Shown here: piece after piece, positions 8,978 to 58,157 of the stretch | Position numbering within the stretch: position 1 is the first letter of the stretch | Layout of the letters: every line of letters starts with the position of its first letter | NCBI GenBank assembly: GCA_039588075.1 | Contig: JBDHAL010000001.1 | Span: forward strand, 7,027-71,026 | DNA length: 64,000 bases | Reading direction: 5' to 3' | DNA from: Gemmatimonadota bacterium | GTDB lineage: Bacteria > Gemmatimonadota > Gemmatimonadetes > Palauibacterales > KS3-K002 | Notes under the pieces: model-generated | Databases searched by the model: none | The model's input: the letters and a program-made list of their open reading frames with translations, nothing else | What the model was told of the DNA's origin: nothing | Position numbers and translations under genes: made by a program

Positions 8978-9113
8978 GATGGGGACTGTGTCGATCACGT
9001 CAACGACAACGACAATGAGAAGCGAGAATCCTGCGGTCCCGTTTTCTCGCTTCTCGCTGTGGTTGTCGCTGTCGTTATCGTTGTCGTTGTCGTAATCGAC
9101 ACAGTCCCCATCC
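8978..9113. repeat. palindromic (AACGAC)n-GAGAAGCGAGAA element, copy 1, immediately 3' of the BNR gene
   Basis: ggatggggactgtgtcgat...(aacgac)n...gagaagcgagaa | ttctcgcttctc...(gtcgtt)n...atcgacacagtccccatcc. This is a near-perfect inverted repeat of about 136 bp. Confidence 0.7.
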
Positions 9114-9116
9114 TTA

Positions 9117-12100
9117 CTAGCCCTCCCGAATAATCACAGCCGGGACCCCGTGCCCCGCGACCATCTCGTTGAACGCCGGGATCTCGGTGGCCACGACCTC
9201 GGCCAGCCGGTCGAGCTGGACCTGGAGCTGGGCCGACAGCTCCTCGTAGACGTCGTGCGACTGCCGGGTCGGCTTTCCGTCTCCCCTGCTGACCACGCCT
9301 GACAGCGCCGCGATCTTGTTGTTCAACTTGATCGGGAAGTTGAGCGGGTCCTGTCGGCTACGGTTCTTGGTCTGGTAGACTTCGTTCTCGATCTCCGACA
9401 GGGTCTTCTTGATCTGCTCCGCCTGCTCCGAAACCTCTTCGGCGTACGGCTGGCCCTTCGTCCGCTCCACGGCACCGTCGATCTGGCCGCGGATGTCGCG
9501 GATGCGCGTCACGGCATCGTTCGCCTCGCTGACCCGATCGCGGATCCGGATGAGGAACTCGAACTGCTCCTGCAGATCCGCCTCGCTGGCGGAGACTCGC
9601 GGGTCCTTCATCACTGTGAACGACTCCGTGTACGTCTCATCGCCCGCGCTGAGCCGCACCTGATACGACCCCGGCGCCGCCCGCGGGCCCGCCGTGCTTC
9701 CGCCCCACATGATCAAGCCGGGGAAGTCGCTCGCGTCGGGATAGCGGAGATTCCATACGAAGCGGTTCATCCCGGCGCTCTTGGGCACCGCCGCTCCGCC
9801 GGGGCGTCCCGGACCACCCGGGCCGCCGGCGCGGCCACCCCGGCCCTCGCTGGTGTACTCGCGGATCAGCGTGCCGTCTTCCTGGAGGAACTCCAGCTTC
9901 ACCGCGCCGCCCGGCTCGTCCTTCAGGTAGTAGTAAACCACGGCGCCGCTGGGCGGGTTGGCGCCAACGCCGGAAGCGCCGCCTCCGAAGCCACCGAAGC
10001 CGCCCAGCCGGTAGGTGTCGCGCGGCTTGAACAGGTGAGCGTCGGCGGCGGCGACCTCGTCGCTCAACTGGCGGAGCGGCGTGAGGTCGTCGAGAATCCA
10101 AAACGAGCGGCCGTGGGTGCCGAGCACCAGGTCGTCGTCCTTGACGACCATGTCTCGGATCGGCACGACGGGCAAGTTCAGCTGCAACGACTGCCAGCGC
10201 TCGCCGTCGTCGAACGAGACGTAGACGCCGAACTCGCCGCCGGCGTAGAGCAGGCCGCGCCGCTCCGGGTCCTCGCGCACGACCCGGATGTAGTGACCGT
10301 CGGGAATGCCGCGGACGATCTTCTCCCAGCTGTTCCCGTAATCTTCCGTCTTGAATATGTAGGGAGCGAAGTCATCCAGCTTGTAGCGGTTCACCGCGAC
10401 GTACGCGACGCCCGGCTGGTGGGCCGACTCGTCGATGATGCTGACCAGCCCCCACTCCGGCATGTCCCTCGGCGTCACGTTCTCCCAGCCCTGACCGCCG
10501 TCGCGGGTTACGTGGACCAACCCATCGTCGGAGCCAACCCAGATGACGTCGCGGTCGTGCTGTGACGGTACCAGCGCGAAGATCGTGTTGTAGTACTCGA
10601 CGCTGGTGTTGTCCTTCGTGATTGGGCCGCCCGACGGGCCCTGCTTGCTCTTGTCGTTGCGCGTCAGGTCCGGGCTGATCGCGTCCCAAGTTTGACCTTC
10701 GTCGTGCGTTCGGAAGACGACGTTGCCGCCGATGTAGAGCTCGTTCGGGTCGAACGGCGACAAGACGATCGGGAACGTCCACTGGAACCGGTACCGGAGC
10801 TCCGCGGCTCCCCAACCCATGGGATTGTCGGGCCAGGCGTTGATCGCCTGCGTTTGGCCGCTGTGCCGGTCGAAACGCGTCAGGAAACCGTCGTAGCTCC
10901 CGGCATACACGACATCCGGATCGTCGGGCCGCGGCGCGATATAGCCGCTCTCACCGCCGCCCACCGCATACCAGTCTTGATCGGTTATCCCGGAGCCGCC
11001 GGTGCGACTGGCGATGCACATCGTGCTGTTGTCCTGCTGCGCGCCGCACACCTTGTACGGGAAGTGATCCGTTGTGGTCACGTGATAGAACTGGGCTGTA
11101 GGCTGATTGTCCTGTCGCGTCCAGGTTCTGCCACCGTTGTACGTCACGTTGGCGCCGCCGTCGTTGCCTTCGACCATGCGGTGCGCGTTGTTCGGGTCGA
11201 TCCAAAGGTCGTGGTTGTCCCCGTGCGGAGTACCGATGGTTTCGTAGGTGCGGCCACCATCGGTCGACTTGTAGAAGCGCACGTTCAGGACGTAGACCGT
11301 ATTCTCGTTCTCGGTATCGGCGTAGATGTGGGTGTAGTACCAGGCGCGCTGCCGCAGGCTGCGATCGTCGTTCACCCGCGCCCACGTCGCGCCGGCGTCG
11401 TCCGATCGGAACACGCCGCCCTCATCGGCCTCGACTATCGCCCAAACTCGCTCCGAGTTGACCGGCGAAATCGTCACGCCGATTCGGCCCAGCATGCCCT
11501 CCGGAAGGCCGTCGTTGCGGCTGATCTCAGTCCAGCTGTCGCCGCCGTCGGTTGACTTGAACAGACCACCGCCCGGACCGCCGCTCTCCATCCCCCAGGG
11601 CATGCGCCGCGCCTGCCAGAACGCCGCGTACAGGACCCGCGGGTTGTTCGGATCCATAGCCAGGTCGACGGCCCCGGTGTTCTCATCTCTGTAGAGGATC
11701 TTCTCCCAATTGACTCCTCCGTCCTTCGACCTGAAGACGCCACGCATCTCGTTGGGTCCGAAGGCGTGGCCGAGCACCGCGACGTACACGATGTCCGCGT
11801 CGTTGGGATGGACCACGACGCCGCCGATCTGACCGGCGTCCCGCAGCCCGGCCCGCTTCCACGTCTTGCCCGCATCCATCGACACGTACATCCCGTCGCC
11901 CGGCGACGTGTTGCCGCGTATGCACGCCTCGCCCATCCCCACGTACACCACGTTCGGATCCGACGGCGCAACGGCTATCGCTCCGACCGAGCCCGCCTCC
12001 AGGTAATCGTCGGTGACCGGCTCCCAAATCGCTCCGCCGTCCACCGTCTTCCACACGCCACCACCCGTGGCGCCCATGTAGTAGACGTACGGCTGGTCCA

Positions 12101-12251
12101 CCACACCGGCGACGGCCACCACTCGTCCGCCCCGGTACGGTCCGATGTTCCGCCACTCGAGGGCGTCGAACAGGCTCTCGTCGTAGGCCTGAGCGCTGAG
12201 GTTGCTCACGGACAAGATCATCGCGACAGAGGCGATGGCGATTTGTTTCAT
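9117..12251 (-). CDS. secreted BNR/Asp-box repeat protein (sortilin/VPS10- or GH74-like beta-propellers)
   Basis: 1044-aa ORF with a signal peptide. It contains many S-x-D-x-G-x-T-W BNR motifs. It is paralogous to 58165-61494. Confidence 0.85.
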   Translation of the reverse strand: MKQIAIASVAMILSVSNLSAQAYDESLFDALEWRNIGPYRGGRVVAVAGVVDQPYVYYMGATGGGVWKTVDGGAIWEPVTDDYLEAGSVGAIAVAPSDPNVVYVGMGEACIRGNTSPGDGMYVSMDAGKTWKRAGLRDAGQIGGVVVHPNDADIVYVAVLGHAFGPNEMRGVFRSKDGGVNWEKILYRDENTGAVDLAMDPNNPRVLYAAFWQARRMPWGMESGGPGGGLFKSTDGGDSWTEISRNDGLPEGMLGRIGVTISPVNSERVWAIVEADEGGVFRSDDAGATWARVNDDRSLRQRAWYYTHIYADTENENTVYVLNVRFYKSTDGGRTYETIGTPHGDNHDLWIDPNNAHRMVEGNDGGANVTYNGGRTWTRQDNQPTAQFYHVTTTDHFPYKVCGAQQDNSTMCIASRTGGSGITDQDWYAVGGGESGYIAPRPDDPDVVYAGSYDGFLTRFDRHSGQTQAINAWPDNPMGWGAAELRYRFQWTFPIVLSPFDPNELYIGGNVVFRTHDEGQTWDAISPDLTRNDKSKQGPSGGPITKDNTSVEYYNTIFALVPSQHDRDVIWVGSDDGLVHVTRDGGQGWENVTPRDMPEWGLVSIIDESAHQPGVAYVAVNRYKLDDFAPYIFKTEDYGNSWEKIVRGIPDGHYIRVVREDPERRGLLYAGGEFGVYVSFDDGERWQSLQLNLPVVPIRDMVVKDDDLVLGTHGRSFWILDDLTPLRQLSDEVAAADAHLFKPRDTYRLGGFGGFGGGASGVGANPPSGAVVYYYLKDEPGGAVKLEFLQEDGTLIREYTSEGRGGRAGGPGGPGRPGGAAVPKSAGMNRFVWNLRYPDASDFPGLIMWGGSTAGPRAAPGSYQVRLSAGDETYTESFTVMKDPRVSASEADLQEQFEFLIRIRDRVSEANDAVTRIRDIRGQIDGAVERTKGQPYAEEVSEQAEQIKKTLSEIENEVYQTKNRSRQDPLNFPIKLNNKIAALSGVVSRGDGKPTRQSHDVYEELSAQLQVQLDRLAEVVATEIPAFNEMVAGHGVPAVIIREG

Positions 12252-12261
12252 GTTGGACCCT

Positions 12262-12360
12262 CCGGTTAGAAGGTAATCGGTGACCGGTGACCGGTAAGTT
12301 CGAAATTCGAGATCATGAGTTACCGGTAACCGGTCACCGGTTACCGATTACCTTCAGTCA
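12262..12360. repeat. GGT[AG]ACCGGT-based palindrome (hairpin; probably terminator of the upstream gene and repeat family member)
   Basis: ccggttagaaggtaatcggtgaccggtgaccggtaag ... cttaccggtaaccggtcaccggttaccgattaccttc, a near-perfect inverted repeat. Confidence 0.5.
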
Positions 12361-12363
12361 GAC

Positions 12364-13134: not shown

Positions 13135-14118
13135 ATGATGGCCACGATCGCCGAGGATCTGCGGACGATCCTGGACGCCGACGTCACGGCGCTGACGATC
13201 TGGCTGCAGTCTCAGGTCGTGGCGGCCGGTGTCGCCGCCGAGGAACCGCTGGTGAGGGGCGCCGTGGAACGTCTGATCGACCTGGAGGAGCGGATCGGCG
13301 TCGACCGGGCGGCGCTTCTCGCTTCGCCAGCCCAGTCAGAGCTTCGCACTTACCTGGAACCCCTGATGCGGGCGAACGAGTACCTCGGTTTCGCCGTGAT
13401 CGACCGACAGGGCAAGATCCTGGCCTCTCGCTACGACGATGCGGTTGGAAGCCCGCTGAGCGCCAGCACATCCAGCCTCACCGAATTGGCGGAAAAGGGC
13501 GTCGCCACCGTTTCGCATCCGTTCATCCCGGAAACGTCGCTGCGCGACAGGAACGGCGTCTTGCAGCCCGGCGACCCGGCGATGGTCGCGATGGCGCCGG
13601 TGCGCAATGCCGACGGTGCCGTGGTTGCCAGCCTGCTTTTCAGAATGGACCCGGAGGATCAGTTCACGCGCATCTTGAGGACGGCGCGCTACGGCGAGAG
13701 TGGAGAGACCTACGCCTTCAACGCCAACGGCTTGCTGCTCTCGGAGAGCCGCTTTGACGATGAGCTGCGTGAACTGGGGCTCATCGCCGCAGACAGTCGA
13801 TCCCACAGCATTCTCCAGGTCCAGATCCGCGACCCCGGCGGCAATATGCTGGACGGGTTCCGGTCCAGCGTCCCGCGCGACGAGCAGCCGCTGACGCGGA
13901 TGGCCGCCGCGGCAATGCGCGGTCGCGACGGTGTCGATGTGGACGGCTACCGTGACTACCGGGGCGTGCCGGTGGTGGGCGCGTGGCCTTGGCTGGGGGT
14001 CGAACACCCGGATCGGCCGGAGGAAAGGCCGAAGGATGGGTCAGGGTCGACGGATTCGGGGAAGTTGGCGCCGACAATGGCGGTGGCGCTGTCAGACAGG
14101 GATTTATCGAACGAGTGA
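13135..14118 (+). CDS. periplasmic Cache-like sensor domain protein, apparently truncated (possible remnant of a chemoreceptor/sensor kinase)
   Basis: Sensor-domain-like sequence (YLGFAVIDRQGKILASR...YRGVPVVGAWPWLGVE) ends abruptly just before MITE copy 1, and no transmembrane or signalling domain follows. Confidence 0.45.
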   Translation: MMATIAEDLRTILDADVTALTIWLQSQVVAAGVAAEEPLVRGAVERLIDLEERIGVDRAALLASPAQSELRTYLEPLMRANEYLGFAVIDRQGKILASRYDDAVGSPLSASTSSLTELAEKGVATVSHPFIPETSLRDRNGVLQPGDPAMVAMAPVRNADGAVVASLLFRMDPEDQFTRILRTARYGESGETYAFNANGLLLSESRFDDELRELGLIAADSRSHSILQVQIRDPGGNMLDGFRSSVPRDEQPLTRMAAAAMRGRDGVDVDGYRDYRGVPVVGAWPWLGVEHPDRPEERPKDGSGSTDSGKLAPTMAVALSDRDLSNE

Positions 14119-14149
14119 ATTCGAAATTAGCGAATTCAAATCAGCGAAT

Positions 14150-14360
14150 TCGCAAGGAATTTTGAACACCGCACACCGAACACCGCCTTTCGAAGGTTAC
14201 ACGACAAGGCTTGATCACTAATCACTGAGATCGAATCGCTGATGATCAGGGTGCCCGTGGAGCCTTGGTCTCTTCAGCATCAGAGATTCGGTCTTGATGA
14301 TCAATGATTGAAGTGCGCCCTTCGAAAGGCGGTGTTCGGTGTGCGGTGTTCGAAATTGCC
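14150..14360. mobile_element. MITE copy 1 (about 210 bp) with about 32-bp terminal inverted repeats GCAATTTCGAACACCGCACACCGAACACCGCC; reverse orientation relative to copies 2 and 3
   Basis: Left end gaattttgaacaccgcacaccgaacaccgcctttcgaagg; right end ccttcgaaaggcggtgttcggtgtgcggtgttcgaaattgc. It has no coding capacity. Confidence 0.65.
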
Positions 14361-14377
14361 CTCGCCATTCTTAATTC

Positions 14378-15957: not shown

Positions 15958-15999
15958 AAAGCATGTAGCACGTAGCCGTTCGGCGCCCACACTTCCCCG

Positions 16000-20100: not shown

Positions 20101-20198
20101 CGGTCCTCACCCTGGGGCTCGTGCCGGTCCTGTACTCGTTGCTGTTCCGCGTTAGCTTCAGGGGGTTCAGCTACGATACACACACGGCAAGATCATGA
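17128..20198 (+). CDS. RND efflux permease (AcrB/HAE1 family), interrupted by an apparent frameshift near 19395
   Basis: The N-terminal roughly 760 aa are in frame 1 (17128-19458). The C-terminal roughly 265 aa continue in another frame (ending FRVSFRGF, stop at 20198). The combined length of about 1020 aa is typical of AcrB. Confidence 0.8.
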
Positions 20199-21910
20199 GC
20201 GATACGAGGGCCATCCAGGAGCCGACCTCTCTGACCAGCGCAACCGGCGGATCCTTCGAACAGGAATTGCGGGATCTGCTCCGGCAGAGGACGCGGCTGA
20301 TGCTCACCGTCGTCCTGGTGGTTGCAGTCGTTGCCCAGGCGGTCAACGCCTTCCTGGTCGCGGTGCCGTCAGCCATCCAGACCGGCCTGGTGCCGTGGAA
20401 GGAAGAGCTCCGCCTGTTGCACATCGTCTCGCTCGCCGTGGCGCTGCTGCTCACCTACTCGCTCAAGGGGAAGGCCCGCCAGTTTCAGCTGTTAGCCTTC
20501 TGGGTCGTAGCGTTCAACATGGTCCTCGCGATGGCCGTCCTCGCCTCGGACAGTCCGGCCGAAGAACCGTACCTGGTTTGTGCGCTGACGCTCTTCCTCT
20601 ACGCGGCGTTCATCCCGTCTCCGGCCCGCTACCCAATCATCCTGGCGCTGGTGGCCGTGGCCGGCTTCGATCTCTCGGCCGTCCTTACTTATGCCTATGT
20701 CCCGGAGGCTCAGGGCTACTGGGCGGAAATCGGTGCGGTGACCGAACTCAGCGGCCTGGCTGCACTGGGGAACCACCTGATCCTCGGGACCACGGGGGTA
20801 GCGATACTCGGCTTCGTGGCTCACGCGGTTAGCCGGACGCTGTACTCCCTGCGGCAAACGGCGCACAAAGCGCAGAGGATGGGCAACTACTTCATCGAGC
20901 AGGAATTGGGCGCCGGCGGGATGGGGCAGGTGTACCGCGCCAGGCACGCGCTGATTCGCCGGCCCACCGCCGTCAAGGTGATGCAGGTGGCAGGAGAGGA
21001 GCAACAGGCGGCGATCAAGCGATTTGAACGAGAAGTGCAGGTGTCGGCGACGCTGTCGCATCCCAACACCATCACGATCTACGACTTCGGGCACACGCCG
21101 GACAACAAGTTCTACTACGTGATGGAATACTTGGACGGACTGGATCTCCAGGAGGCAGTAGAGCGATTCGGACCACTGACGGCCGAACGCGCCGTGTTCA
21201 TCCTGGCGCAGGTCTGCAGCGCCATGGGCGAAGCTCACGCGCGCTCCATCGTGCACCGCGACATCAAGCCGTCGAATATCTACCTGACCCATCGCGGTGG
21301 CCTGTACGATTTCGTCAAAGTCCTCGACTTCGGGCTGGCCAAGCAGCTCGAGGTACAGGAGAGCGTGGCGCTGACCAAGACCGGCGTCGCCGTCGGCACG
21401 CCGCGTTACATCTCGCCCGAAGCGATCAAGGGCGCCGAGAATATCGATGGGCGCTCCGACCTGTACTGCCTCGGCGCGGTAGCCTACTGGATGATTACCG
21501 GGCGACCGGTCTTCGATTCGTCATCCAGCGTCGAGTTGATGATCGACCATATGAGGGCCATCCCCAGCCCGCCTTCGCAGGTGACGGAGCTGTCGATCCC
21601 GCGCGATCTGGAAATCATCGTCATGCAGTGCCTGTCCAAGGATCCGAATGACCGCTTCCAAACCGCGGAGGAGATGGAGCTCGCCCTCCGCGCCATCCAC
21701 TTCGAGGAACCCTGGACCCAGCAGAAGGCACGCGAGTGGTGGGATCTCCACGGACTGGTCAGCGAGACTCCGCCTGACCTGCCACGCCCCAAGCAGAACG
21801 AGACCGATCTGCTCAGCCCCGGGATCTCCCAGCCTCTCCTAAACTCGTTTCTCGTTTCTCACTGTCGTTGTCATTGTCGTTGCCGTTGTCGTTATCGACA
21901 ACGACAGTGA
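20195..21910 (+). CDS. membrane-anchored Ser/Thr protein kinase (N-terminal about 6-TM domain plus Hanks kinase)
   Basis: GAGGMGQVY, AVKVM, HRDIKPSN, DFG and SPE motifs. The C-terminal residues CRCHCRCRCRYRQRQ are encoded by the palindromic repeat. Confidence 0.85.
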   Translation: MSDTRAIQEPTSLTSATGGSFEQELRDLLRQRTRLMLTVVLVVAVVAQAVNAFLVAVPSAIQTGLVPWKEELRLLHIVSLAVALLLTYSLKGKARQFQLLAFWVVAFNMVLAMAVLASDSPAEEPYLVCALTLFLYAAFIPSPARYPIILALVAVAGFDLSAVLTYAYVPEAQGYWAEIGAVTELSGLAALGNHLILGTTGVAILGFVAHAVSRTLYSLRQTAHKAQRMGNYFIEQELGAGGMGQVYRARHALIRRPTAVKVMQVAGEEQQAAIKRFEREVQVSATLSHPNTITIYDFGHTPDNKFYYVMEYLDGLDLQEAVERFGPLTAERAVFILAQVCSAMGEAHARSIVHRDIKPSNIYLTHRGGLYDFVKVLDFGLAKQLEVQESVALTKTGVAVGTPRYISPEAIKGAENIDGRSDLYCLGAVAYWMITGRPVFDSSSSVELMIDHMRAIPSPPSQVTELSIPRDLEIIVMQCLSKDPNDRFQTAEEMELALRAIHFEEPWTQQKAREWWDLHGLVSETPPDLPRPKQNETDLLSPGISQPLLNSFLVSHCRCHCRCRCRYRQRQ

Positions 21911-21948
21911 CAACGACAGTGAGAAACGAGAAGCGAGGGGGAGCGCCC
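21845..21948. repeat. palindromic (GTCGTT)n/(AACGAC)n-GAGAAACGAGAAGCGAG element, copy 2, between the tandem kinases
   Basis: ctcgtttctcgtttctcactgtcgttgtcattgtcgttgccgttgtcgttatcgacaacgacagtgacaacgacagtgagaaacgagaagcgag. Confidence 0.6.
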
Positions 21949-21982: not shown

Positions 21983-23638
21983 ATGGCTATGCCAGAGCAC
22001 GTGCCTACCGTCGAGCGGGCGATATCCGGGCCCTTCTCAACCACGGCCTCGTTCGAGGATGAGCAGCTTGAGCTGCTGTGGGAACGCTGCCGCCTGCTGT
22101 TCGTTACCGGGCTGGCTATCTGCGGTATCGCCTTCGTAGTGAATTTGCTGATCCCCGAATACAAGCTGTATCTCGAGAGCCCGCTGCTTCGCTTCAAGTG
22201 GGCGACCAGCGCGGCGGCCCACGCCGCTTCGTTCCTCGTTGCGCTGGGGCTGCTCTATCTGTTCTGCAGGCGCAGTCCTAAGTACCTGCACGCCATCGCC
22301 TATGCCACGATGGCATTCAACATCGTTCTGCTCACATCCGGTCACGTGGCATTTCAGCCCGATAAAGATCCCGGCCTCGGCGTCTCGTTGTTGCTGTTTC
22401 TCGCCGCGGCGTTCATTCCCTGGCGACCCAGCTATCAGTGGGCGCTGGCAGCGATGGCAGCCATCTGGTTCCTGCTGTTGCAGGGCTTGCTACAGGCGAC
22501 GCTATCCGAGTTTCAGCTTTTCTGGGCCCAACGCGGTGGCGCAGAGGCGGCGCGCGCCAATGTCATCTGGGGTGTCACCGCCATCGCGATGCTGGGCGGT
22601 GCCTCGGCAATGGTGAGCCATACGCTGTACAACCTGAAGAAGACGGCCCACCGGGCGAAGCGGCTGGGCAAGTACCTGATCCACGGAGAGATCGGTGAAG
22701 GCGGCATGGGCCAGGTATACTTCGCCCAACATTCATTGATCTGCCGGCCGACGGCCGTCAAAGTCATGCGACCGTCGGAGGACGGGCGAACGGCGCTGGC
22801 GCGGTTCGAGCGAGAGATCCGCGTCTCGGCAACGCTCACGCACCCGAACACGATAACGATCTACGACGTCGGCTGGACGCCGGAACGAAGCCTGTATTAC
22901 GCGATGGAGTACCTGGAGGGTTTGGACCTGCAGCAGCTGGTGGAGAAATACGGGCCACTATCTCCGGAGCGCGTCGTCCATATCCTGAAGCAGGCCGCGG
23001 GCTCGCTCGAGGAAGCGCATTCCCGAAACATCATCCACCGCGATATCAAGCCGTCCAACATCTTCCTGACGCGTCGCGGCGGCATCTACGATTTCGTGAA
23101 GGTTCTCGACTTCGGGCTCGCCAAGCAAATCAAGTCGGACACGGCCAGCGCAATCACGAAGACGGGCATGCTGTTCGGGACACCGCGCTACCTGGCGCCC
23201 GAAACCGTCTATGGAACCGAGAAGATAGATGGACGAGCCGACCTCTACTGCCTCGGCGGCGTGGCGTATTGGATGCTCACCGCGCGACCCGTGTTCACTT
23301 CTGAGACGAGCGTCGAGGTCGTCATCGATCACGTCAAGACGATACCGGATCGACCGTCCGAGGTTTCCGAGGTTTCGATCCCTGCGGAGCTGGAAGACAT
23401 CGTGATGAGATGCCTGGAGAAGAAGCCGTCCGACCGCTATCAGACGGCCCGCGATCTCGAGTCCGCGCTGGATGCCGTTCCCTTCTCGGATTCGTGGAAC
23501 CGGTCGAAGGCGGAGGATTGGTGGAACCTGCACGGCATCATCGGCGACGGCGCTCGCGACTACGATTGCTACTTCCCGGGAAGTGATTTCGAGGCTGAAG
23601 AAGAAGTTCCCCTCGGCACCGCTGAACCCGCTGCATAG
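21983..23638 (+). CDS. membrane-anchored Ser/Thr protein kinase, tandem paralog of 20195-21910
   Basis: Same architecture as the upstream kinase. The kinase-domain blocks align closely (HPNTITIYD, YDFVKVLDFGLAKQ). Confidence 0.85.
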   Translation: MAMPEHVPTVERAISGPFSTTASFEDEQLELLWERCRLLFVTGLAICGIAFVVNLLIPEYKLYLESPLLRFKWATSAAAHAASFLVALGLLYLFCRRSPKYLHAIAYATMAFNIVLLTSGHVAFQPDKDPGLGVSLLLFLAAAFIPWRPSYQWALAAMAAIWFLLLQGLLQATLSEFQLFWAQRGGAEAARANVIWGVTAIAMLGGASAMVSHTLYNLKKTAHRAKRLGKYLIHGEIGEGGMGQVYFAQHSLICRPTAVKVMRPSEDGRTALARFEREIRVSATLTHPNTITIYDVGWTPERSLYYAMEYLEGLDLQQLVEKYGPLSPERVVHILKQAAGSLEEAHSRNIIHRDIKPSNIFLTRRGGIYDFVKVLDFGLAKQIKSDTASAITKTGMLFGTPRYLAPETVYGTEKIDGRADLYCLGGVAYWMLTARPVFTSETSVEVVIDHVKTIPDRPSEVSEVSIPAELEDIVMRCLEKKPSDRYQTARDLESALDAVPFSDSWNRSKAEDWWNLHGIIGDGARDYDCYFPGSDFEAEEEVPLGTAEPAA

Positions 23639-31065: not shown

Positions 31066-32064
31066 TTGCGAACCGCGCTACCCGGCTCTCGACGAGGCGG
31101 TCGAACAGCACTTAATATCGGACGCACTTTGACGAACCGACAGTCGGGCAACCCGAGCTACTCGCGGACCTATCTCGCCCTGGCCGCCCTGATCTTCATC
31201 TGGGCCTCGAATTTCTCGGTGGTCAAGTTCGCGCTCCGCGACATGTCGCCGCTCGCCTTCAACGGCATGCGGTTCGCCGTCGCATCGACGGTGCTCTGGG
31301 TGACCGTGAGGGTCGGCGGTATTACGACCACCATCCCTCGGCGCCACTGGCCCGCGTTGATCGGACTGGGCGTGCTCGGCAACACCGTCTACCAGATCCT
31401 CTTCATCTACGGAATCGACTGGACGCTCGCCGGCAACGCCAGCCTGATGCTGGCGGCCACTCCGATCTTCACCACGCTGCTCTCAGTGATGTTCCGCCAG
31501 GAACGAATCGCCCTCCTGGCCTGGTCGGGCGTGTCGATCTCCGTTGTCGGCATCGCCCTCGTCGTATGGGGCGGCACCCAGGCGGTGAGCTTCAGCTCCG
31601 AAACGGTGCGTGGCGACCTCACCGTGCTCTGCGCCGCGGTCGCCTGGTCCGCCTACACGGTGGGCGCGAACCCGCTGGTGCGCCGTTACGGCGCTCTGCC
31701 GGTCACCGCCGTGACGATGTGGGTCGGCGGCGTGGGACTCCTGGCCGCCTCCGTGCCCGCCTTCCTGGCGCAGGACTGGTCGGCCGTACGACCGGTCTCG
31801 TGGCTCGCGCTCATCTATAGCGGCGCCTTCGCCATCGCCCTGGCCTACTTCATCTGGTATTACAGCATCCATCAGATCGGAACCACGCGAACCGCGGTCT
31901 ACTCCAACTTCATCCCGGTCGTCGCGCTGGTCATCGCGTGGCTGGCGCTGGGCGAGCTGCCCACCTGGCTGCAGATAGTGGGCGCAGCGGGCATCGTCGC
32001 GGGTACGATCCTGGTCCGGCTCGGCAGGATAGAGAGGTCCGCCATCGGTCCTCCGGCCGAGTAA
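31066..32064 (+). CDS. DMT superfamily (EamA-like) transporter
   Basis: Two EamA repeats with 10 TM helices. An alternative TTG start exists at 31129. Confidence 0.75.
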   Translation: MRTALPGSRRGGRTALNIGRTLTNRQSGNPSYSRTYLALAALIFIWASNFSVVKFALRDMSPLAFNGMRFAVASTVLWVTVRVGGITTTIPRRHWPALIGLGVLGNTVYQILFIYGIDWTLAGNASLMLAATPIFTTLLSVMFRQERIALLAWSGVSISVVGIALVVWGGTQAVSFSSETVRGDLTVLCAAVAWSAYTVGANPLVRRYGALPVTAVTMWVGGVGLLAASVPAFLAQDWSAVRPVSWLALIYSGAFAIALAYFIWYYSIHQIGTTRTAVYSNFIPVVALVIAWLALGELPTWLQIVGAAGIVAGTILVRLGRIERSAIGPPAE

Positions 32065-32140
32065 GCGCGGTGGCCCGTCCCGCCTACTTGCCCGTCCGGC
32101 GCGACATGGAGCGAGGTGGCCCCTGTCGCACCCCGCACTC
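32060..32140. repeat. GC-rich modular repeat unit (TTGCCCGTCCGGCGCGACATGGAGCGAG...) overlapping the luxC 3' end
   Basis: Same unit as at 37230-37265, 39880-39910 and 40675-40710. It encodes the last roughly 18 aa (PPRSMSRRTGK) of the LuxC-like ORF. Confidence 0.5.
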
Positions 32141-33571
32141 ACCACGCGTCACATCAAGATCAACGAACCGGACCAAGTCCTGGAATTGAAACCGCCCATC
32201 GTGGTGCCAGTGCGGTGCGGGCCAGGCCGCCTCGCCGATGGGAACGATCCGCGTGGCTCCGGCCGCGCCGAGCTGAGCCGCGAGAACCGCCACCTCGTCC
32301 GGCGTCGCTGCCACCGCCACGGTCTGAAGCCGGTGCCCCACCCGCTCCAACGCCGACAGCGCTTCCGACAGCTCGCCGACCGGGCGGACGTGTATGACCC
32401 GATTGAGCGGCGACGGCTCGAACTCCGGACGCTCTTCGATGATCACCGTCCACTCGGTTCCGCGCTGGCCGGCCAGCACAGTCGCCCCGCGGATCTCCGC
32501 CTGCGCCCGCAACTGGTGGATCAGAGTCGATTCGCCGGGCGTCATCGTGCCGCGCGGGATCTCGGTCGAGAGCCGCTCCAGGGCCGCGGCGAGCAGGTTC
32601 GCGAACTCGAGCGGGCTCACCGCACCCCCGTCTTCCACGTAGATGGCGTGCGGCGAAACGCAGCCCTGCTGGTCGAAGGTCACGACATCGAGAGCGGCGT
32701 CGCGTGCTAGACTCTCCGTGTCGCCGGCGCCGAGCCCGTTGCGGGAGATCAGCGCCGCACCAACGCGGTTGGGGTAGGCGATGAAACGGACCTGGGGCGG
32801 TACGTGGCAACCGATTCGGCCGATCGTTTCGTCGCTACCGTAGGCGATCACCACCTCGGCCTCCGAGAACGCCACAGCCTCCAGATCGTCCGATCCGCCC
32901 GGCCAATAGGTGACGCCCAGACAACCGGCCAGCTCCGGGTCCTCTTCCGCCAGCGCCCGGGCGAAACAGACGGCGACGTACGGTTCGCCGGCCGCCGTCT
33001 TGCCGAAGCCTGCCGATTTCACGCAGAGCGAGCGGATCAGGCTACTCACCGACACGCCGGGGATATTGCCGCTGAACACGTGCACCGTGAGCGAGGGGCC
33101 GAATGCGCGTTCGAGGCCGCCGGATGTGCGGACGCGGAAATCATCGAGAACGTCGAGGCCTTTGAATTCGTCCTCGAGCGCACCGCGCAGCGCGCCGGCC
33201 GTCCAACCGGCTCCCATCCGCTCCAACCCGATCTCGATCATCTCCCGAGAGTACCCGGTGAGTCCGGGCAACACCTCGAGGAGTTCGGCATGCAGCGGTT
33301 CGCCCTGCCGGACGAGGCGCCGAGATGCGCGTTCGATCGTATCGAGGAGCTCGGCCACAGGTCGTTCGGCCAAGACCTCGGCTCGCTTCCTGCGCATGTC
33401 GATCAGCACGTCTCGCAGGGCGTGCGGCGTCAGCGTGGGAACGCGCAGCGGGATGTGGCCCGGGCCGAATGCGCGCTCGGCGACCTCGAAGCCCGGCCCG
33501 CGGAGCGCGTCGGTCGGTCGGTCGTGGAGCGCCGGTAACCAGAAACCGTCTAGCGTTGTGCCGTCAGCCAT
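32084..33571 (-). CDS. LuxC-like long-chain acyl-CoA/acyl-protein reductase
   Basis: LuxC family architecture (aldehyde-dehydrogenase-like fold with a conserved Cys region). It overlaps the upstream luxE-like gene by 22 nt. Confidence 0.75.
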   Translation of the reverse strand: MADGTTLDGFWLPALHDRPTDALRGPGFEVAERAFGPGHIPLRVPTLTPHALRDVLIDMRRKRAEVLAERPVAELLDTIERASRRLVRQGEPLHAELLEVLPGLTGYSREMIEIGLERMGAGWTAGALRGALEDEFKGLDVLDDFRVRTSGGLERAFGPSLTVHVFSGNIPGVSVSSLIRSLCVKSAGFGKTAAGEPYVAVCFARALAEEDPELAGCLGVTYWPGGSDDLEAVAFSEAEVVIAYGSDETIGRIGCHVPPQVRFIAYPNRVGAALISRNGLGAGDTESLARDAALDVVTFDQQGCVSPHAIYVEDGGAVSPLEFANLLAAALERLSTEIPRGTMTPGESTLIHQLRAQAEIRGATVLAGQRGTEWTVIIEERPEFEPSPLNRVIHVRPVGELSEALSALERVGHRLQTVAVAATPDEVAVLAAQLGAAGATRIVPIGEAAWPAPHWHHDGRFQFQDLVRFVDLDVTRGECGVRQGPPRSMSRRTGK

Positions 33572-34764: not shown

Positions 34765-35709
34765 CTATTTGTCTTCCTCCTCCTCTTCTTCTTCCTCCTC
34801 CTCCTCCTCTTCTTCTTCTTCCTCCTCCTCCTCCTCTTCTTCTTCCTCCTCCTCCTCCTCCTCCTCCTCTTCTTCCTCTTCTTCTTCTTCTTCGCCTACA
34901 TCCTCATCCTCTTCTTCTTCCTCTTCTTCCTCTTCCTTCTTTTTCGCCTTGGCCTTCGCCGCTTCTTCACTAGCCGCCGCCGCCGCCATTGCCGCCGCCG
35001 CAGCCGCCGCAGCCTCTGGATCAAACAACAGCGCGTCGAAGTCATCCACCGCCAACTCATCGGTGGGCGCCTTGATCTCCACCCCCTTGTCGGCAGCGCG
35101 CCGCAGCTCGTCCGGCGTGAGCATGGCGGCGAAAACGACCGGTGTCCAGCCGGCGGCGCGAACGCCCTCGGTCGCCTTGCCCTCGCGAACTCGTTCGGCC
35201 GAATCCTCATCGCCCAAGTCGGCGAGTTTCTCAGCCAGGAACTCGCGGAAATCGGTCCGCTCGACGTACTGGCTCATGAGAAGGAGGTGCTGCACGGCGA
35301 GCAACTGCAGCCCGGATTCGACGGAGGCCGAGCAGTAGGCATCGATGTGCTCGCGGGCGATCTCGAGGAAGCCCTTTCCCAAGCAGAGCCAAGCGAGCGT
35401 GCGGCGCGTGCGGATTACCTCAGGGACGACCCGGATGATCTTGCGGCAGACCGCCATGGCGTTGTCGTACTCGCCGGACTGCAGGTAGGCGTCGATGGCA
35501 TTGCCGTAGCGTGCAAGAGCGCTCTGGCGGTCCCCTTTGACGAGGTAGAGATCGCCGGCACGGTTGAGCAGGCGCGCCGCCTCGTAGCCGTGCCCCAGCC
35601 TCTCCAGCTCCTTCTCTATCCGCTCGAGATCATCGCTGGCCATGACCGGAGTGGAAGCGTCCGGATCCTGGTCGGCGCCGCCGAATACTTTCTTAAAGAA
35701 ACCGAGCAT
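34765..35709 (-). CDS. TPR-like protein with an about 70-residue poly-Glu C-terminal tail
   Basis: N-terminal TPR-like helical repeats. The C-terminal tail reads EEEEEEEEEDEDVGEEEE...EEEDK. Confidence 0.7.
   Translation of the reverse strand: MLGFFKKVFGGADQDPDASTPVMASDDLERIEKELERLGHGYEAARLLNRAGDLYLVKGDRQSALARYGNAIDAYLQSGEYDNAMAVCRKIIRVVPEVIRTRRTLAWLCLGKGFLEIAREHIDAYCSASVESGLQLLAVQHLLLMSQYVERTDFREFLAEKLADLGDEDSAERVREGKATEGVRAAGWTPVVFAAMLTPDELRRAADKGVEIKAPTDELAVDDFDALLFDPEAAAAAAAAMAAAAASEEAAKAKAKKKEEEEEEEEEDEDVGEEEEEEEEEEEEEEEEEEEEEEEEEEEEEEEEEEEEEEEEDK
34768..34930. repeat. (CTC/CTT)n trinucleotide microsatellite (GAG/GAA on the coding strand) encoding the poly-Glu tail
   Basis: About 160 bp of cttcctcctcctc repeats. 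Confidence 0.75.
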
Positions 35710-36975: not shown

Positions 36976-37289
36976 TTAACCCGGTTCGGGCGTTCGCGAA
37001 AGACGCGGCGGTGGTGCGGGATGGGGCGGGGTCATCTCGCTCCAGGTCGCGCCGGACGGGCGGACGGGCGGGACGGGCAAACCGCGCTCCAACTTGCGCT
37101 CGACGACCCCCGCCCCATCCCTTGAGGCCGCGGTAATGACTGCAAGTTCGAACTTTGTTACCGCGAATAGGAGGGCGCAGCGGGGACCCTCGAGCGGATA
37201 TTTGGAGCGCCCCGGCCCGTCACGCGCTCCAGCCCGACCGGCGCGACATGGAGCGAGAGGGTCCCCGTTGTGCCCGACCGCCAACCGCG
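36976..37289. repeat. composite array of GC-rich modular hairpin repeats, just 3' of dnaE2
   Basis: Contains a GGGATGGGGCGGGG unit, its reverse complement CCCCCGCCCCATCCC, the hairpin gcggtaatgactgcaagttcgaactttgttaccgc and the unit GCGCGACATGGAGCGAGAGGGTCCCCG. Confidence 0.6.
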
Positions 37290-41096
<3,807 letters not shown>

Positions 41097-41254: not shown

Positions 41255-41435
41255 GCAATTTCGAACACCGCACACCGAACACCGCCTTTCGAAGGGCGCA
41301 CTTCAACCTCTAATCACCAAATGATGGATCGCCAATCCTTAAGACTTATGGGCATTTGGTCTTAGGGGGTTAGCGATTTGTCATTGCCGTGCCACCTTCG
41401 AAAGCCGGTGTTCGGTGTGCGGTGTTCGAAATTGC
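41255..41435. mobile_element. MITE copy 2 (181 bp), immediately upstream of dnaE2
   Basis: Terminal inverted repeats gcaatttcgaacaccgcacaccgaacaccgcctttcgaagg / ccttcgaaagccggtgttcggtgtgcggtgttcgaaattgc. Its interior is about 90% identical to copy 3. Confidence 0.7.
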
Positions 41436-41514
41436 AGTCCCCCAGGGCCAACCGCGGCCCACTCTATAGGACAAAGTACTTGACAACCCCAACCAAGAAC
41501 CATAGCATTCGACC

Positions 41515-45300: not shown

Positions 45301-45427
45301 TAAAGTTCACTCGGCCTGGGCCACCCGACCCCGGTGAGGCCCGGGTTGAACCGCTCCGCGCCTGATCCTAGTCTTATGTGGGTGGAGCGTGAGATTCTCC
45401 TTAGGTGAGATTCTCCTTAGTATTACT

Positions 45428-45606
45428 GCAATTTCGAACACCGCACACCGAACACCGCCTTGAGAAGGGGGCACTTCAACTTCTAACCGTCAAATGACAA
45501 ATCGCCAATCGTTAAGACTTATGGCATTTGGCCTTAGGGCTTAGCGATTTGTCATTGCCGTGCCACCTTCGACAGGCGGTGTTCGGTGTGCGGTGTTCGA
45601 AATTGC
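45428..45606. mobile_element. MITE copy 3 (179 bp), immediately upstream of the SDR gene
   Basis: Same terminal inverted repeats and interior as copy 2. It is preceded by the direct repeat gagattctccttag, present twice. Confidence 0.7.
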
Positions 45607-45658
45607 AGTAGAAGCAAGAGTACGAGTAAATAAACGCGGAAGATCTGGAGGTAGCCGG

Positions 45659-51030: not shown

Positions 51031-51075
51031 CTGAAGAATCGGTGACCGGTAACCGGTAACCGGTAACAGAATAGT
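51028..51075. repeat. GGTGACCGGTAACCGGTAACCGGTAAC tandem/palindromic repeat (same family as 12262-12360)
   Basis: ggtaactgaagaatcggtgaccggtaaccggtaaccggtaacagaatag. Confidence 0.4.
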
Positions 51076-51885: not shown

Positions 51886-51925
51886 ACCAGCGGCGCGGGG
51901 CCGGCGCGAGCCGGCCCCTTTTCAT

Positions 51926-53092: not shown

Positions 53093-53216
53093 CCTCCCCG
53101 CGTTATCCCTCTTACTTCTACTCGTAGTCGTATCCGTACTCCTGTCTCGGATGCGGCCGCTCACGATTGCGACGAGTAGGAGTACGAGTACGAGTAGGAG
53201 TACGAGTAGGGACCGA

Positions 53217-53675: not shown

Positions 53676-53681
53676 GTCGAC

Positions 53682-55685: not shown

Positions 55686-55820
55686 TGCCGATCCGGCGGC
55701 GTGTCGCCACACGGAGCGGCGCGCCGGCCTCAGCGCTACCCGCGATGCCAAACCCCACCTACTCCGCAAGATAGAAACAGCCTCCCGTTTTTCGGCCACT
55801 CCTTCGGCGGTACCTATTAT

Positions 55821-55862
55821 CCATACAAAACCCGGGGAGATTACATTCGCAACCTCCCCGGT
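55821..55862 (-). terminator. intrinsic terminator downstream of arsM
   Basis: On the minus strand: CCCGGGGAG, loop gttgcgaatgtaat, CTCCCCGGG, then UUUUGUAUGG. Confidence 0.5.
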
Positions 55863-55899
55863 GGCAACGGCCGAGCCGAGCGAGCGGACTAGCCTGCGC

Positions 55900-56718
55900 T
55901 CAGACCGGACGACTCGCCCGGACAAACGCCGAGGCGAATTTCCCCTCGGCCAACCAGCTATCCTCCACCTCGATTCCGAAGTCCCGGCCGAGCTTCTTCA
56001 GCTCCTCACCCTCATAAACCCGGGTGATCTCTACATCAATATCTACGAAGCCCGAGTCGGCAAGTTTCGATCGGTACTCGTCCTCGTGCAACGCACCCGC
56101 TATGCAGCCGCTCCACGCCTCGATGCTCCGACGGAGCGTCTCCGGAATCCGACCCTGGAATACGACGTCCGATACCGCGAAGCGGCCGCCCGGCCGCAGC
56201 ACTCTGAACGCCTCACGCAGCACCCCGTCCTTGTCTGGTGACAGGTTGATCACGCAGTTCGAGATGATCACATCCACACTCTCGTCCGGAAGCGGCACCT
56301 CCTCGATCGTACCCTTCAAGAACTCCGCGTTCTCGATCCCCGCCTCGCGCTGGTTGCCGCGCGCCAGCTCCAGCATCTCGTCCGTCATGTCCAGCCCGTA
56401 TGCTTTTCCTTCAGGGCCCACGCGCCGCGCCGACAGCAACACGTCGATCCCGCCGCCCGAACCCAGGTCCAGGACCACCTCGCCCGGATTCAACTCCGTC
56501 AACGCCGTTGGGTTCCCACAACCCAGCGACGCCAGCGCCGCCGCGTCCGGTACCTCCGCCAACTCGTTCGCCGAGTATAGGTCCCGCGTTATTACGCTCT
56601 TCTCCGACCCGCAGCACTCCGTCGGCCCACAGCAGCTCGCCTGCCGCGAGTCTCCGACCGTCCGCGCCGCCGCAGCGTAACGCTCTCTTACAGCCTCTCT
56701 GACTTTCTGGTCACTCAT
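55900..56718 (-). CDS. arsM: arsenite S-adenosylmethionine methyltransferase (ArsM-like)
   Basis: SAM-binding motif (VLDLGSGGG) and conserved Cys residues (CCGPTECCG ... SGC). Start at MSDQKV with a GGAGAG RBS; upstream ORF sequence is repeat-derived. Confidence 0.8.
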   Translation of the reverse strand: MSDQKVREAVRERYAAAARTVGDSRQASCCGPTECCGSEKSVITRDLYSANELAEVPDAAALASLGCGNPTALTELNPGEVVLDLGSGGGIDVLLSARRVGPEGKAYGLDMTDEMLELARGNQREAGIENAEFLKGTIEEVPLPDESVDVIISNCVINLSPDKDGVLREAFRVLRPGGRFAVSDVVFQGRIPETLRRSIEAWSGCIAGALHEDEYRSKLADSGFVDIDVEITRVYEGEELKKLGRDFGIEVEDSWLAEGKFASAFVRASRPV

Positions 56719-56732
56719 TGTTCTCTCCGTTG

Positions 56733-56787
56733 CCGTTTTCTCGTTTCTCGCTGTCGTTGTCGTTGTCATTGTCGACATAGTCCCTAC
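56733..56787. repeat. half copy of the (GTCGTT)n-GAGAAACGAG palindromic element, copy 3, between arsM and marR
   Basis: ttctcgtttctcgctgtcgttgtcgttgtcattgtcgacatagtccctacc. Confidence 0.5.
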
Positions 56788-57323
56788 CGCTCTTCTTGCC
56801 CCGGGAGCGGGACGCTGCAGCAGCTCCCGCCACCCGCCACGATCCAGGACGCCGCCGCCTCGGACAGCCGCCCGATCAACTGCACCATCGATTCCCGAAC
56901 CTCATGATCGAAATCCGACAGCAGCATCCGCTCCTGGGCCAGCATCTCCTTCTCGATCAAACCCTGCAGCCCGGCCCCCGCCTTCGTCACGCTCAACCGC
57001 ACCGCACGACCATCCTCCGGGTGCCGCGCCCGCTCCACATAGCCTTTCCGCTCCAGCGCGTTCACCACCCGGCTCGCCGTGCTCTTGTCCAGGTACAGCT
57101 CCGCCGCCAGCTCGTTCAGCGTCAGGTCCCCCTTGCCCACCAGGATCTCCAACGCCCACGACTGCGTCACCGATATGTCGTGACAGCAGATCCGGTCCCG
57201 GTCGCGGAACTGGTACACGCGCTTGAGCTCCTGCAGGACTCCGTGCAGCGCCGCCGTATCCGCATCCAGCACACGGGCGGCCTGCCTCTCGTGTTGCGGT
57301 TTGGAAGCTGTCGTCCCAGCCAT
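56784..57323 (-). CDS. MarR-family transcriptional regulator (Cys-rich; likely metalloid-responsive)
   Basis: MarR winged helix (LTLNELAAELYLDKSTASRVVNALERKGYV) with paired Cys residues (ICC, SCCS). Start at MAGTTASKPQ. Confidence 0.7.
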   Translation of the reverse strand: MAGTTASKPQHERQAARVLDADTAALHGVLQELKRVYQFRDRDRICCHDISVTQSWALEILVGKGDLTLNELAAELYLDKSTASRVVNALERKGYVERARHPEDGRAVRLSVTKAGAGLQGLIEKEMLAQERMLLSDFDHEVRESMVQLIGRLSEAAASWIVAGGGSCCSVPLPGQEER

Positions 57324-57332
57324 AGCGCACCT

Positions 57333-57416
57333 ATTGTTGTTAGTGCCAATGTTGTCACTCACAACAGTAACGCCCACACTCTTATTTGTCAACACCCCGG
57401 GGGGGCGGGGGGGGGC
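57333..57416. promoter_or_regulatory. divergent control region: operator-like palindrome TTGTTGTTAGTG...CACTCACAACAG plus a G7-C-G9 homopolymer tract
   Basis: Inverted repeat at 57333-57370; poly-G tract ccccgggggggcgggggggggc at 57395-57416. Confidence 0.35.
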
Positions 57417-57497
57417 ACGCCGCCTTATTGACGCCCTGCCTGGCAACGCCCAACTTGCCCCAAATTCATAGGATCCTACAAGCGAGGGAGGGGCCTG

Positions 57498-57992
57498 ATG
57501 AGAAGACTTTTACTAGCTGCTAGCTTTTCGCTGTTCGCGCTGACGCCGGGCGCGCTTAACGCTCAGGTGGCGTTGGGCGGGCAACTCAACTGGGGTTTCA
57601 GCGATGCCGACGCCGGAGTGGGCGCCCGAATCTCGGGCATGGCGGTCCGCAACTATGGTCTCGAGCTCATGGGTAGTTTTGATTACTTCTTCCCCGGCGA
57701 TAATGTCGACTACTGGGAGGTCAACCTGAACTTCGCCTATGCGATCCCCGGGGTAACCAGCACTGAGATCGAGCCGTACGCGGGTGCCGGGATCAACATT
57801 GCCAATGCGTCGGTAGACGTGGGCGGCGCAGTGGGTACGGCATCGAATACCGACGTGGGCGCGAACCTGTTGGCCGGCATAAAGTACCCGATCGGCAACG
57901 CGATGACGTTTGGCGAAGTGCGACTCGAGCTGGGAGGCGGCGAGCAGTTCGTGGTCACGGGCGGGGTGATGTTCAACGTCTGGTCGCCTTAG
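57498..57992 (+). CDS. small outer-membrane beta-barrel protein (OmpW/porin-like)
   Basis: Signal peptide; alternating beta-strands; C-terminus ends MFNVWSP. Confidence 0.6.
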   Translation: MRRLLLAASFSLFALTPGALNAQVALGGQLNWGFSDADAGVGARISGMAVRNYGLELMGSFDYFFPGDNVDYWEVNLNFAYAIPGVTSTEIEPYAGAGINIANASVDVGGAVGTASNTDVGANLLAGIKYPIGNAMTFGEVRLELGGGEQFVVTGGVMFNVWSP

Positions 57993-58028
57993 CTGCGGGT
58001 TGTTGAGGTCGGCGGTCAGTGAGAAGAC

Positions 58029-58157
58029 CCCGACAAAGACAACGATAACGACAACGACAACGACAACGACAGCGAGAAACGAGAAGCGAGCGCTCCGAAC
58101 AACAGTGCCGTTTTCTGGTTTCTCGCTGTCGTTGTCGTTATCGAAATAGTCCCTACC
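58029..58157. repeat. palindromic (AACGAC)n-GAGAAACGAGAAGCGAG element, copy 4, immediately 3' of the second BNR paralog
   Basis: gacaaagacaacgataacgacaacgacaacgacaacgacagcgagaaacgagaagcgag | ...ttctggtttctcgctgtcgttgtcgttatcgaaatagtccctaccc. Confidence 0.65.

Follow-up and report, generated by a model that had tools for sequence, protein, structure and literature searches.

What are the palindromic repeats that recur in the spacers of an uncultured Gemmatimonadota genome, and how did two of them come to adjoin the 3' ends of two paralogous genes? The question was addressed in a 64-kb stretch of contig JBDHAL010000001.1 (assembly GCA_039588075.1; hereafter the window), in which (AACGAC)n tracts and their flanking blocks form a repeat referred to here as family A. 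Copies lie directly past the stop codons of both Sortilin-Vps10/BNR genes, BNR1 and BNR2, and in other spacers. According to the original prediction, the element had either been duplicated together with the BNR genes or acts as a shared hairpin terminator. The main outcome of the analysis is a correction of that first reading, i.e., there was no co-duplication with BNR, and evidence for a dedicated terminator is lacking. Family A probably represents a set of lineage-specific, short, non-autonomous palindromic repeats, with an architecture like that of paired repetitive extragenic palindromic (REP) sequences, known as REPINs, or of MITEs (miniature inverted-repeat transposable elements) with long terminal inverted repeats (TIRs). 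It is regarded as a new, lineage-restricted family of a well-known class, one that falls outside the strict definitions of REP, MITE and terminator, and its unusual feature is the hexamer periodicity of its arms. A repeat family is thereby added from a poorly studied, uncultured soil phylum.

The family A unit reads, 5' to 3', (CCGTT)TTCTCG(Y)TTCTCRCT-(GTCGTT)n-ATCGACAYAGTCCC(YAYCC), which on the other strand corresponds to the module GGGACTRTNTCGA-(AACGAC)n-AGCGAGAARCGAGAA. It is 50-75 nt long, has no self-complementarity, and forms arms with a periodicity of 6 nt. Two further contig loci, L088 and L090, were read alongside the window, giving ~77.5-78 kb of the genome in total; L088 overlaps window positions 1-5179 at 99.8% identity. 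All four loci originally predicted were recovered where they had been placed, with their shared blocks, and a fifth copy was found just outside the window, bringing the census to nine arms at five loci in ~77.5 kb. These arms are arranged as three head-to-head dimers (copies 1, 4 and 5), one tail-to-tail dimer (copy 2) and one singlet (copy 3).

In the head-to-head copies 1 and 4 the reverse complement of the unit is followed by a loop and then the unit, so that the GAGAA blocks lie at the loop. Copy 1 (8977-9113; no strand assigned) is a hairpin of 137 nt between the BNR1 stop codon (9117-9119) and a kinase ATG (~8893), with GGGACTGTGTCGA at its base and the GAGAAGCGAGAA/TTCTCGCTTCTC blocks adjoining the loop; its right arm contains ~3 hexamers more than its left arm. 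Copy 4 (58029-58160; no strand assigned) has more unequal arms, with ~7.5 hexamers on the left vs ~2.5 on the right, and its outer left end is not complementary to its right end; it lies in a convergent spacer between the stop codons at 57990-57992 and 58165-58167. Copy 5 (L088 6307-6446) is a further head-to-head hairpin ~1.1 kb beyond the window start, between DUF456 and purA. Copy 2 (21844-21937; no strand assigned), a tail-to-tail hairpin of 94 nt, consists of a unit followed by its reverse complement, joined at the TCGA of ATCGAC, which puts the GAGAA blocks at the base; its arms of 42 nt are 93% complementary across a 10-nt spacer, and both are without the outermost CAYAGTCCC. Copy 3 (56738-56787, + strand) consists of one arm only, which corresponds to the right arm of copy 1 and of copy 4, includes the loop-proximal CCGTTTTCTCG and has no partner arm. 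It is either a truncated element or a singlet, and its identity with the right arm of copy 4 is 95%, the loop-proximal CCGTTTTCT included. Across the copies, arms measure 31-66 nt with 74-94% complementarity, hairpins measure 94-141 nt, and the hexamer number differs by up to 5 units between the arms of one hairpin.

These similarities are far above chance. For TTCTCRCTGTCGTTGTC, there were 5 exact matches and 20 with at most 3 mismatches, all within the four loci of the window, vs 0.36 in shuffled sequence; GTCGTTGTCGTT at no more than 1 mismatch gave 19 matches vs 0.34 expected from shuffles, with 17 of the 19 in these loci, and TCGAMAYAGTCCC gave 4 matches vs 0.24 expected. An nhmmer profile built from the nine arms recovered the family A arms in the window, L088 and L090 with E-values of 4e-7 to 2e-16, and no other member in these sequences. 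Upon folding, copies 1, 2 and 4 form strong hairpins of 40-55 bp with z-scores of -7.4 to -13.7, at energies of -87.3/-90.4 kcal/mol for copy 1 (z -11.9/-13.7), -75.8/-68.6 for copy 2 and -60/-64.2 for copy 4. Copy 3 (71 nt with flanks) did not fold (-7.3/-5.9 kcal/mol, z -0.03/+0.69). No match at gathering score was found to Rfam 15 in the whole window. The elements are unchanged in independent assemblies of other samples at 99.6-99.7% identity, which rules out an assembly artefact. The contigs derive from JGI metagenomes 3300041086, 3300041080 and 3300041082, and NCBI has records of their proteins as well. That the hexamer tracts might be hypervariable between strains was considered and rejected, copies 3 and 4 being identical in these variants.

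When differences in hexamer number are removed, the arms are 77-95% identical to each other with the non-periodic flanks included, and by this comparison the copies are established as homologous. In copies 1 and 5 the two arms differ in the same way (...ACAATGAGAAGCGAGAAT on the left, CTCGCY... on the right), from which it follows, at the level of sequence, that whole, already imperfect hairpins were copied as units.

The proposed co-duplication with BNR was assessed next to both genes. BNR1 (9117-12251, - strand, 1044 aa) and BNR2 (58165-61494, - strand, 1109 aa in the JGI call) are indeed followed within a few nucleotides by a copy, at 3 nt from the stop codon for copy 1 and 7 nt for copy 4, which adjoins the BNR2 stop at 58165-58167. 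Finding two of the five copies right next to the 3' ends of both paralogs would be expected if the element were part of an ancestral BNR block duplicated as a whole; it is a mildly unusual, post-hoc observation. However, BNR1 and BNR2 are only 39.6% identical in amino acid sequence over 770 aa, and non-coding DNA duplicated together with them could not have stayed 80-90% identical, whereas the arms are still 77-95% identical at the nucleotide level. The closest BNR1 homologs are annotated as Gemmatimonadales or Gemmatimonadota metagenome-assembled genome (MAG) proteins, the best ortholog being 78% identical, and the BNR1 orthologs at the related loci L003, L004 and L005 (74-78% identity) have no element downstream. 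No family member occurs at Gemmatimonadota BNR loci among 80 related loci, three of the five copies are unconnected with BNR genes, and no larger duplicated block surrounds copies 1 and 4. Shared descent with a BNR block is thus refuted, and the divergence of the two proteins dates the family A copies as far younger than the BNR duplication.

Comparison with relatives also shows what the spacers look like without the element. The BNR1-kinase spacer is 223 nt long here, 137 nt of which is copy 1, vs 30 and 56 nt in L003 and L004, respectively, both without the element; in L005 it measures 204 nt and holds unrelated sequence. The spacer of the tandem kinases that flank copy 2 is 38 nt in L004 and likewise has no element. 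In the DUF456-purA spacer, which holds copy 5 here, unrelated hairpins occur in L003 (12426-12553) and L004 (22361-22497), and three unrelated hairpins in one orthologous spacer suggest either fast turnover or a preferred landing site. On these alignments family A is absent from the orthologous spacers of related species.

All copies lie 3' of a gene, in co-directional or convergent spacers, and begin 0-8 nt from a stop codon; the flanking genes correspond to those described before (two Sortilin-Vps10/BNR genes, Pkinase genes, a methyltransferase and a MarR gene). Downstream of copy 1, a Ser/Thr kinase gene (7562-8893, - strand) is co-directional with BNR1 in a gene order kept in relatives, and its start ATGGACACC agrees with that of its orthologs. 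Copy 2 separates two tandem Ser/Thr kinase genes, as had been proposed, and supplies the tail of the first. The open reading frame (ORF) of kinase 1 (20195-21910, + strand) runs 66 nt into copy 2, ends at the TGA at 21908-21910, and takes its final ~20 codons, encoding FLVSHCRCHCRCRCRYRQRQ, from the left arm, whereas the L004 ortholog ends in ...GISRFFIEP without this tail. Judged from this alignment, copy 2 replaced the original stop codon of kinase 1 and added ~20 residues. Kinase 2 (21983-23638, + strand) starts 45 nt after copy 2. Copy 3 lies between a MarR-family regulator gene (56784-57273, - strand) and a gene for an S-adenosylmethionine (SAM)-dependent methyltransferase (55900-56718, - strand), with the copy immediately upstream of the latter. 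The MarR part of the earlier annotation stood, and the arsM label amounts to the methyltransferase domains alone. The arsM-like gene probably starts at the ATG at 56716-56718, which is preceded by GGAGAG, and the marR stop codon TAG (56784-56786), overlapping the outer end of the copy, is the TAG inside GGTAGGGACT; copy 3 thus fills the spacer from the marR stop to the ribosome-binding site and ATG of the arsM-like gene. Across copy 4, BNR2 faces a convergent gene for a small, outer membrane protein (OMP)-like protein of 164 aa with a signal peptide (57498-57992, + strand). Such repeats distort gene calls, e.g., through the 20-residue tail of the kinase and an arsM-like start mis-called inside copy 3.

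The second part of the original prediction was a shared hairpin terminator. In its fuller form, the copies would be dedicated intrinsic (bidirectional) terminators, a selected stop signal whose sequence spread through gene conversion or arose by convergence. The position of all copies right behind stop codons, that of copy 4 between convergent genes, and the high stability of the stems fit this role. In addition, canonical terminator-like sites occur in the window at chance frequency only, and the orthologous spacer of relatives mentioned above also contains unrelated hairpins, which fits it too. However, no U-tract or T-run follows any copy on either strand. The genes on either side of copies 1, 2 and 3 are co-directional and probably co-transcribed, and in relatives only 30-56 nt separate the gene pairs split by copies 1 and 2. 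Copy 3 forms no hairpin, and 65 nt downstream of copy 5 there is a canonical terminator (GCCCCC-GGAAC-GGGGGC-TTTTT). Good canonical terminators are also present elsewhere in the genome, e.g., at 51897-51918 of the window, and a terminator scan left the copies unflagged, except for an incidental loop match (58096-58083). Family A thus resembles Rho-independent terminators in having a stable hairpin directly past the stop codon, and differs from them in stems of 40-55 bp vs 5-15 bp, in the missing U-tract, and in copies that lie in probable operons or, once, ahead of a canonical terminator. A dedicated terminator role is not supported, and is considered quite unlikely.

The favored account, that of short palindromic repeats that were dispersed over the genome, would run as follows. 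Copies would have been inserted into very short (6-56 nt) spacers after genes of a compact genome, which would explain their closeness to stop codons without special targeting, and also how one copy replaced a stop codon. Insertion without target-site duplication would fit a single-strand HUH/Y1 enzyme (RAYT/TIRYT-like) or another hairpin-recognizing mobilizer, which would be encoded outside the ~78 kb read. The hexamer tracts would then have changed length by slippage over evolutionary time, because the arms within a hairpin differ by as many as 5 units. By analogy with REP and bacterial interspersed mosaic elements (BIMEs) and with ERIC, the elements would be transcribed with the upstream gene as RNA hairpins of 40-55 bp in the 3' untranslated region (UTR) or intercistronic region, where they would block 3'-5' exonucleases or partly attenuate read-through. 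The same analogy suggests that they act as passengers of these regions, and most copies may be nearly neutral.

Several observations weigh against this account. No transposase or RAYT was seen in the ~78 kb read, and the gene pair bracketed by copies 3 and 4 encodes MarR and the 164-aa protein, which was rejected as a RAYT since it has a signal peptide and is OMP-like, not HUH. There is no target-site duplication, as the flanks of copies 1, 2, 4 and 5 contain no direct repeat longer than 2 nt, nor do the ends share a conserved tag; GGGACT is preceded by the tetranucleotide GTAG in copies 3 and 4, by GATG in copy 1 and by AATT in copy 5, i.e., GTAG at two of the four GGGACT-type ends examined. 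No presence/absence polymorphism was found among the variants of 99.6-99.7% identity, and hence no sign of recent mobility. The hairpin families of the genome share no consistent bias in sense-strand RNA stability: in family A the sense orientation is favored by 2-5 kcal/mol, and other families have the opposite bias or none. Lastly, some variants are private to one hairpin and common to both of its arms (CTCACT in copy 2, CACAGTCCCCATCC in copy 1), which could reflect local inverted duplication.

This last observation leads to an alternative in which the palindromes were generated locally, i.e., a microsatellite in a spacer underwent fold-back or template-switch inverted duplication and grew by slippage, with no transposition, and the similarity between loci arose from ectopic gene conversion. 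In addition to the private substitutions in copies 1 and 2, this would account for symmetry centers at either end of the module (head-to-head and tail-to-tail) and for the unequal hexamer counts between arms. It would also fit a wider pattern, in which 30% of 56 long hairpins (from the window and L003-L087, loci of Gemmatimonadota and Acidobacteriota) have periodic arms, mostly of period 7, vs 0.5% of control segments, a periodic arm being defined by at least 70% self-match at a period of 5-12. However, the non-periodic flanks (GGGACTRTNTCGA, AGCGAGAARCGAGAAAACGG) are common to five unlinked spacers, copies 1 and 5 have one arm asymmetry in common, and a dispersal mechanism would still be required for the shared flanks. 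Local generation is held to be unlikely, and dispersal is retained as the probable origin.

The periodic arms may have a broader significance. Family A may be one case of an undescribed class of 'periodic-arm' hairpins common to Gemmatimonadota and Acidobacteriota, a suggestion that is put forward tentatively and is itself on the doubtful side. The stems of such a class may consist of tandem units of 6-10 nt, with tracts lengthened and shortened by slippage. Periodic-arm hairpins include (CGGTAAGGGG)n in L020, (CGGGAGG)n in L033, (AGTAGAC)n in L060 and (GTGATAA)n in L065 and L067. Acidobacteriota MAGs have periodic-arm hairpin families of their own, and (ACACAGAG)n hairpins are common to different MAGs of this phylum (L078, L085). 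No description of periodic-arm hairpins was found in the literature. If it is true that the periodic arms reflect a distinct way of generation or mobilization, the known types of bacterial miniature repeats would be broadened.

The 6-nt periodicity could also be read at the DNA level, with the hexamers as arrays of sites for a nucleoid, gyrase/IHF-like or regulatory protein. BIMEs of Escherichia coli bind IHF and gyrase, which lends this some plausibility. However, the arms differ freely in hexamer number and phase, the copies are associated neither with promoters nor with divergent spacers, and no candidate protein that binds them is known. A protein-binding array is accordingly very improbable.

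Compared with known repeat classes, family A shares most with the REP-type repeats and long-TIR MITEs, in line with the original proposal of a dispersed palindromic family comparable with REP/BIME or Correia-type elements. A REP sensu stricto is an imperfect palindrome of 20-40 nt with a stem of 5-13 bp that folds alone and carries a GTAG or CGTC end tag, whereas a single family A arm does not fold, the unit measures 50-75 nt with a core of hexamer tandem repeats, and GTAG is found in copies 3 and 4 only. Location and arrangement do agree with REP/BIME and REPINs (PMC3733652, PMC3116915): these lie outside genes, at the 3' ends of genes and in spacers of co-directional or convergent pairs, and occur as head-to-head dimers, tail-to-tail dimers and singlets, with dimer hairpins of ~100 nt. 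As in REPINs, inverted units of family A are paired into one hairpin of 94-141 nt that is copied as a unit. Further likenesses are the lack of target-site duplication, an element end that can supply a TAG stop codon, and the existence of several species-specific families per genome. The opposite arm order of copy 2 was confirmed, but it is not unusual, as had been suggested, since both dimer types are normal for REP-type repeats, as are singlets and repeat ends that supply TAG stop codons (PMC3733652). No RAYT was seen alongside family A, and Gemmatimonadota were not among the phyla surveyed for REPs.

With long-TIR MITEs such as ERIC/IRU, Correia/NEMIS and RUP (definition in PMC11602168), family A shares TIRs of at least 10-15 bp, a size within 50-800 bp (94-141 nt, nearly all of it inverted repeat), absence of coding capacity, a probably transcribed intergenic location, and possible in-frame fusion to ORF ends. 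It differs in having no target-site duplication of 2-10 bp, no recognizable parent insertion sequence in the ~78 kb read, no sequence similarity to these elements, and low-complexity, periodic arms. Acidobacteria have described long-TIR repeat families that are tied to Y1 transposases (PMC3733652), and the TIRYT-associated TIR repeats of Acidobacteria and Stenotrophomonas (PMC3733652) resemble family A as moderately abundant long inverted repeats that form dimers or clusters like REPs, in part in a related soil phylum (Acidobacteria); family A lacks their GGGGWSAS motif. Neither the GC-rich stem with immediate U-tract of an intrinsic terminator nor a segmental duplication with BNR describes the copies. 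Integron attC sites were rejected as well, as the flanking genes are syntenic chromosomal genes and the elements make up no array of consistently oriented cassettes.

On the data available, family A appears to be restricted to this one species-level lineage. A 24-nt degenerate pattern across the GAGAA/hexamer junction, which matches 6 of the 7 arms in the window, had no match in 185,579 species genomes, the source lineage itself being missing from the searched collections, and none in a metagenome or a viral collection. An outer-end pattern gave two matches in the metagenome collection, both chance matches in sequence coding for WDCIDNDNDG, and a looser 17-mer gave 26 matches in viral contigs, none of them true members and all either coding or unrelated. 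One of these, a hairpin at 1450-1530 of L099 (IMG/VR), was examined as a possible member and rejected: it is a (GAGAANC)n / (CTCACTT)n periodic hairpin without the hexamer tract and flanks, has the GAGAARCGAGAA block in common with family A, and is probably unrelated. The ~80 related loci (1.5 Mb, about half Gemmatimonadota) contained no member, and the literature yielded no described Gemmatimonadota repeats or MITEs.

Family A is one of several hairpin families in this genome, where ~1 hairpin occurs per 5-7 kb. In the window, 9 long hairpins scored at least 20 and 12 scored at least 15, vs 0 and ~0.1, respectively, in ten dinucleotide shuffles. The density is 1.4 per 10 kb, vs 0.07 per 10 kb across the 679 kb that were taken from other loci of Gemmatimonadota. 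The families comprise A, B, a (CGGTRAY)n family with three copies, (TCGAACA)n, (ACGAGT)n and a GC-rich repeat. In L088, four consecutive spacers contain one hairpin each. Such repeats can fill most 3' spacers of a compact, GC-rich genome.

Family B (ACACCGCACACCGAACACCGCC) forms hairpins of 185-215 nt and is present in five copies in ~78 kb (window 14156-14360, 41255-41438 and 45424-45610; L088 5571-5780 and 9190-9401). Its arms start with GGAAT(T/G)TCGAACACCGCACACCGAACACCGCCTTTCGAAGG, it folds at -110 to -130 kcal/mol, and all four copies with assignable flanking genes (i.e., excluding that at 41255-41438) lie 3' of genes. Tandem direct repeats are found immediately upstream of two of these hairpins, at 14117-14152 (GAATTCGAAATCAGC, 2.5 units) and 45389-45420 (GTGAGATTCTCCTTAG, 2 units). 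The heptamer family (CGGTGAC/CGGTAAC/CGGTGAT)n occurs at 12269-12355, at 51040-51067 as a half copy, and at L088 7852-7979, as hairpins and a single arm 8-10 nt past stop codons, and a similar GTAGTCGGTGGTCGGTGATCGGTAG tract follows the stop codon of the BNR1 ortholog in L005, from another species. An (ACGAGT/AGGAGT)n hairpin (53109-53208) lies in a co-directional spacer 8 nt past a stop codon, and as RNA it folds more stably in the antisense than in the sense orientation, by 11 kcal/mol. A (TCGAACA)n hairpin (5272-5483) fills the convergent spacer between an inositol-phosphatase and an ATPase gene, both of whose stop codons it overlaps; in L004 and L003 the orthologous spacer measures 6 and 30 nt, respectively. 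The independent assembly of the same population in L088 breaks at window position 5179, 93 nt from this hairpin, and hairpin repeats appear to fragment metagenome assemblies, as at this L088 end.

An outer box, T(G/T)TCGA(A/C)(C/A)A, is common to three otherwise unrelated families (e.g., ATGTCGACAA, ATGTCGAACA and TTGTCGAACA), with sites in family A at 8990-8995 and 56772-56777, in family B at 41262-41270 and L088 9197-9205, and also at 5272-5285. It could be a common recognition motif or a coincidence. The presence of the T(G/T)TCGA(A/C) box in several families could also point to one mobilizing enzyme, or to a mechanism of stem growth distinct from REP/RAYT and from MITEs derived from insertion sequences.

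The GC-rich palindromic repeat has copies at 32064-32148, 37004-37290, 38020-38059, 39676-39942 and 40600-40732 and at L090 7119-7500, some of which lie within dnaE. This gene (37290-41096, - strand; PHP, pol III alpha, finger, HHH and OB domains) has an uninterrupted ORF of 1268 aa that, compared with Taq DnaE, contains three insertions (about aa 112-182, 378-504 and 1000-1038). The insertions coincide with copies of the GC-rich repeat, which is also found in intergenic DNA; an intergenic copy and a copy inside dnaE are 91% identical over 217 nt, and the same peptide, LDDPRPI, is encoded in two of the insertions. From its sequence, the repeat appears to be translated in frame within an essential polymerase, as with RPE or intragenic REPs. 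A further low-complexity region is found at 34765-35709 (- strand), where a 314-aa protein with a weak TPR match carries a long, acidic, Glu-rich tract that is encoded by a (TCC/TTC)n array (34775-34937) and matches the acidic tail of ribosomal 60S proteins.

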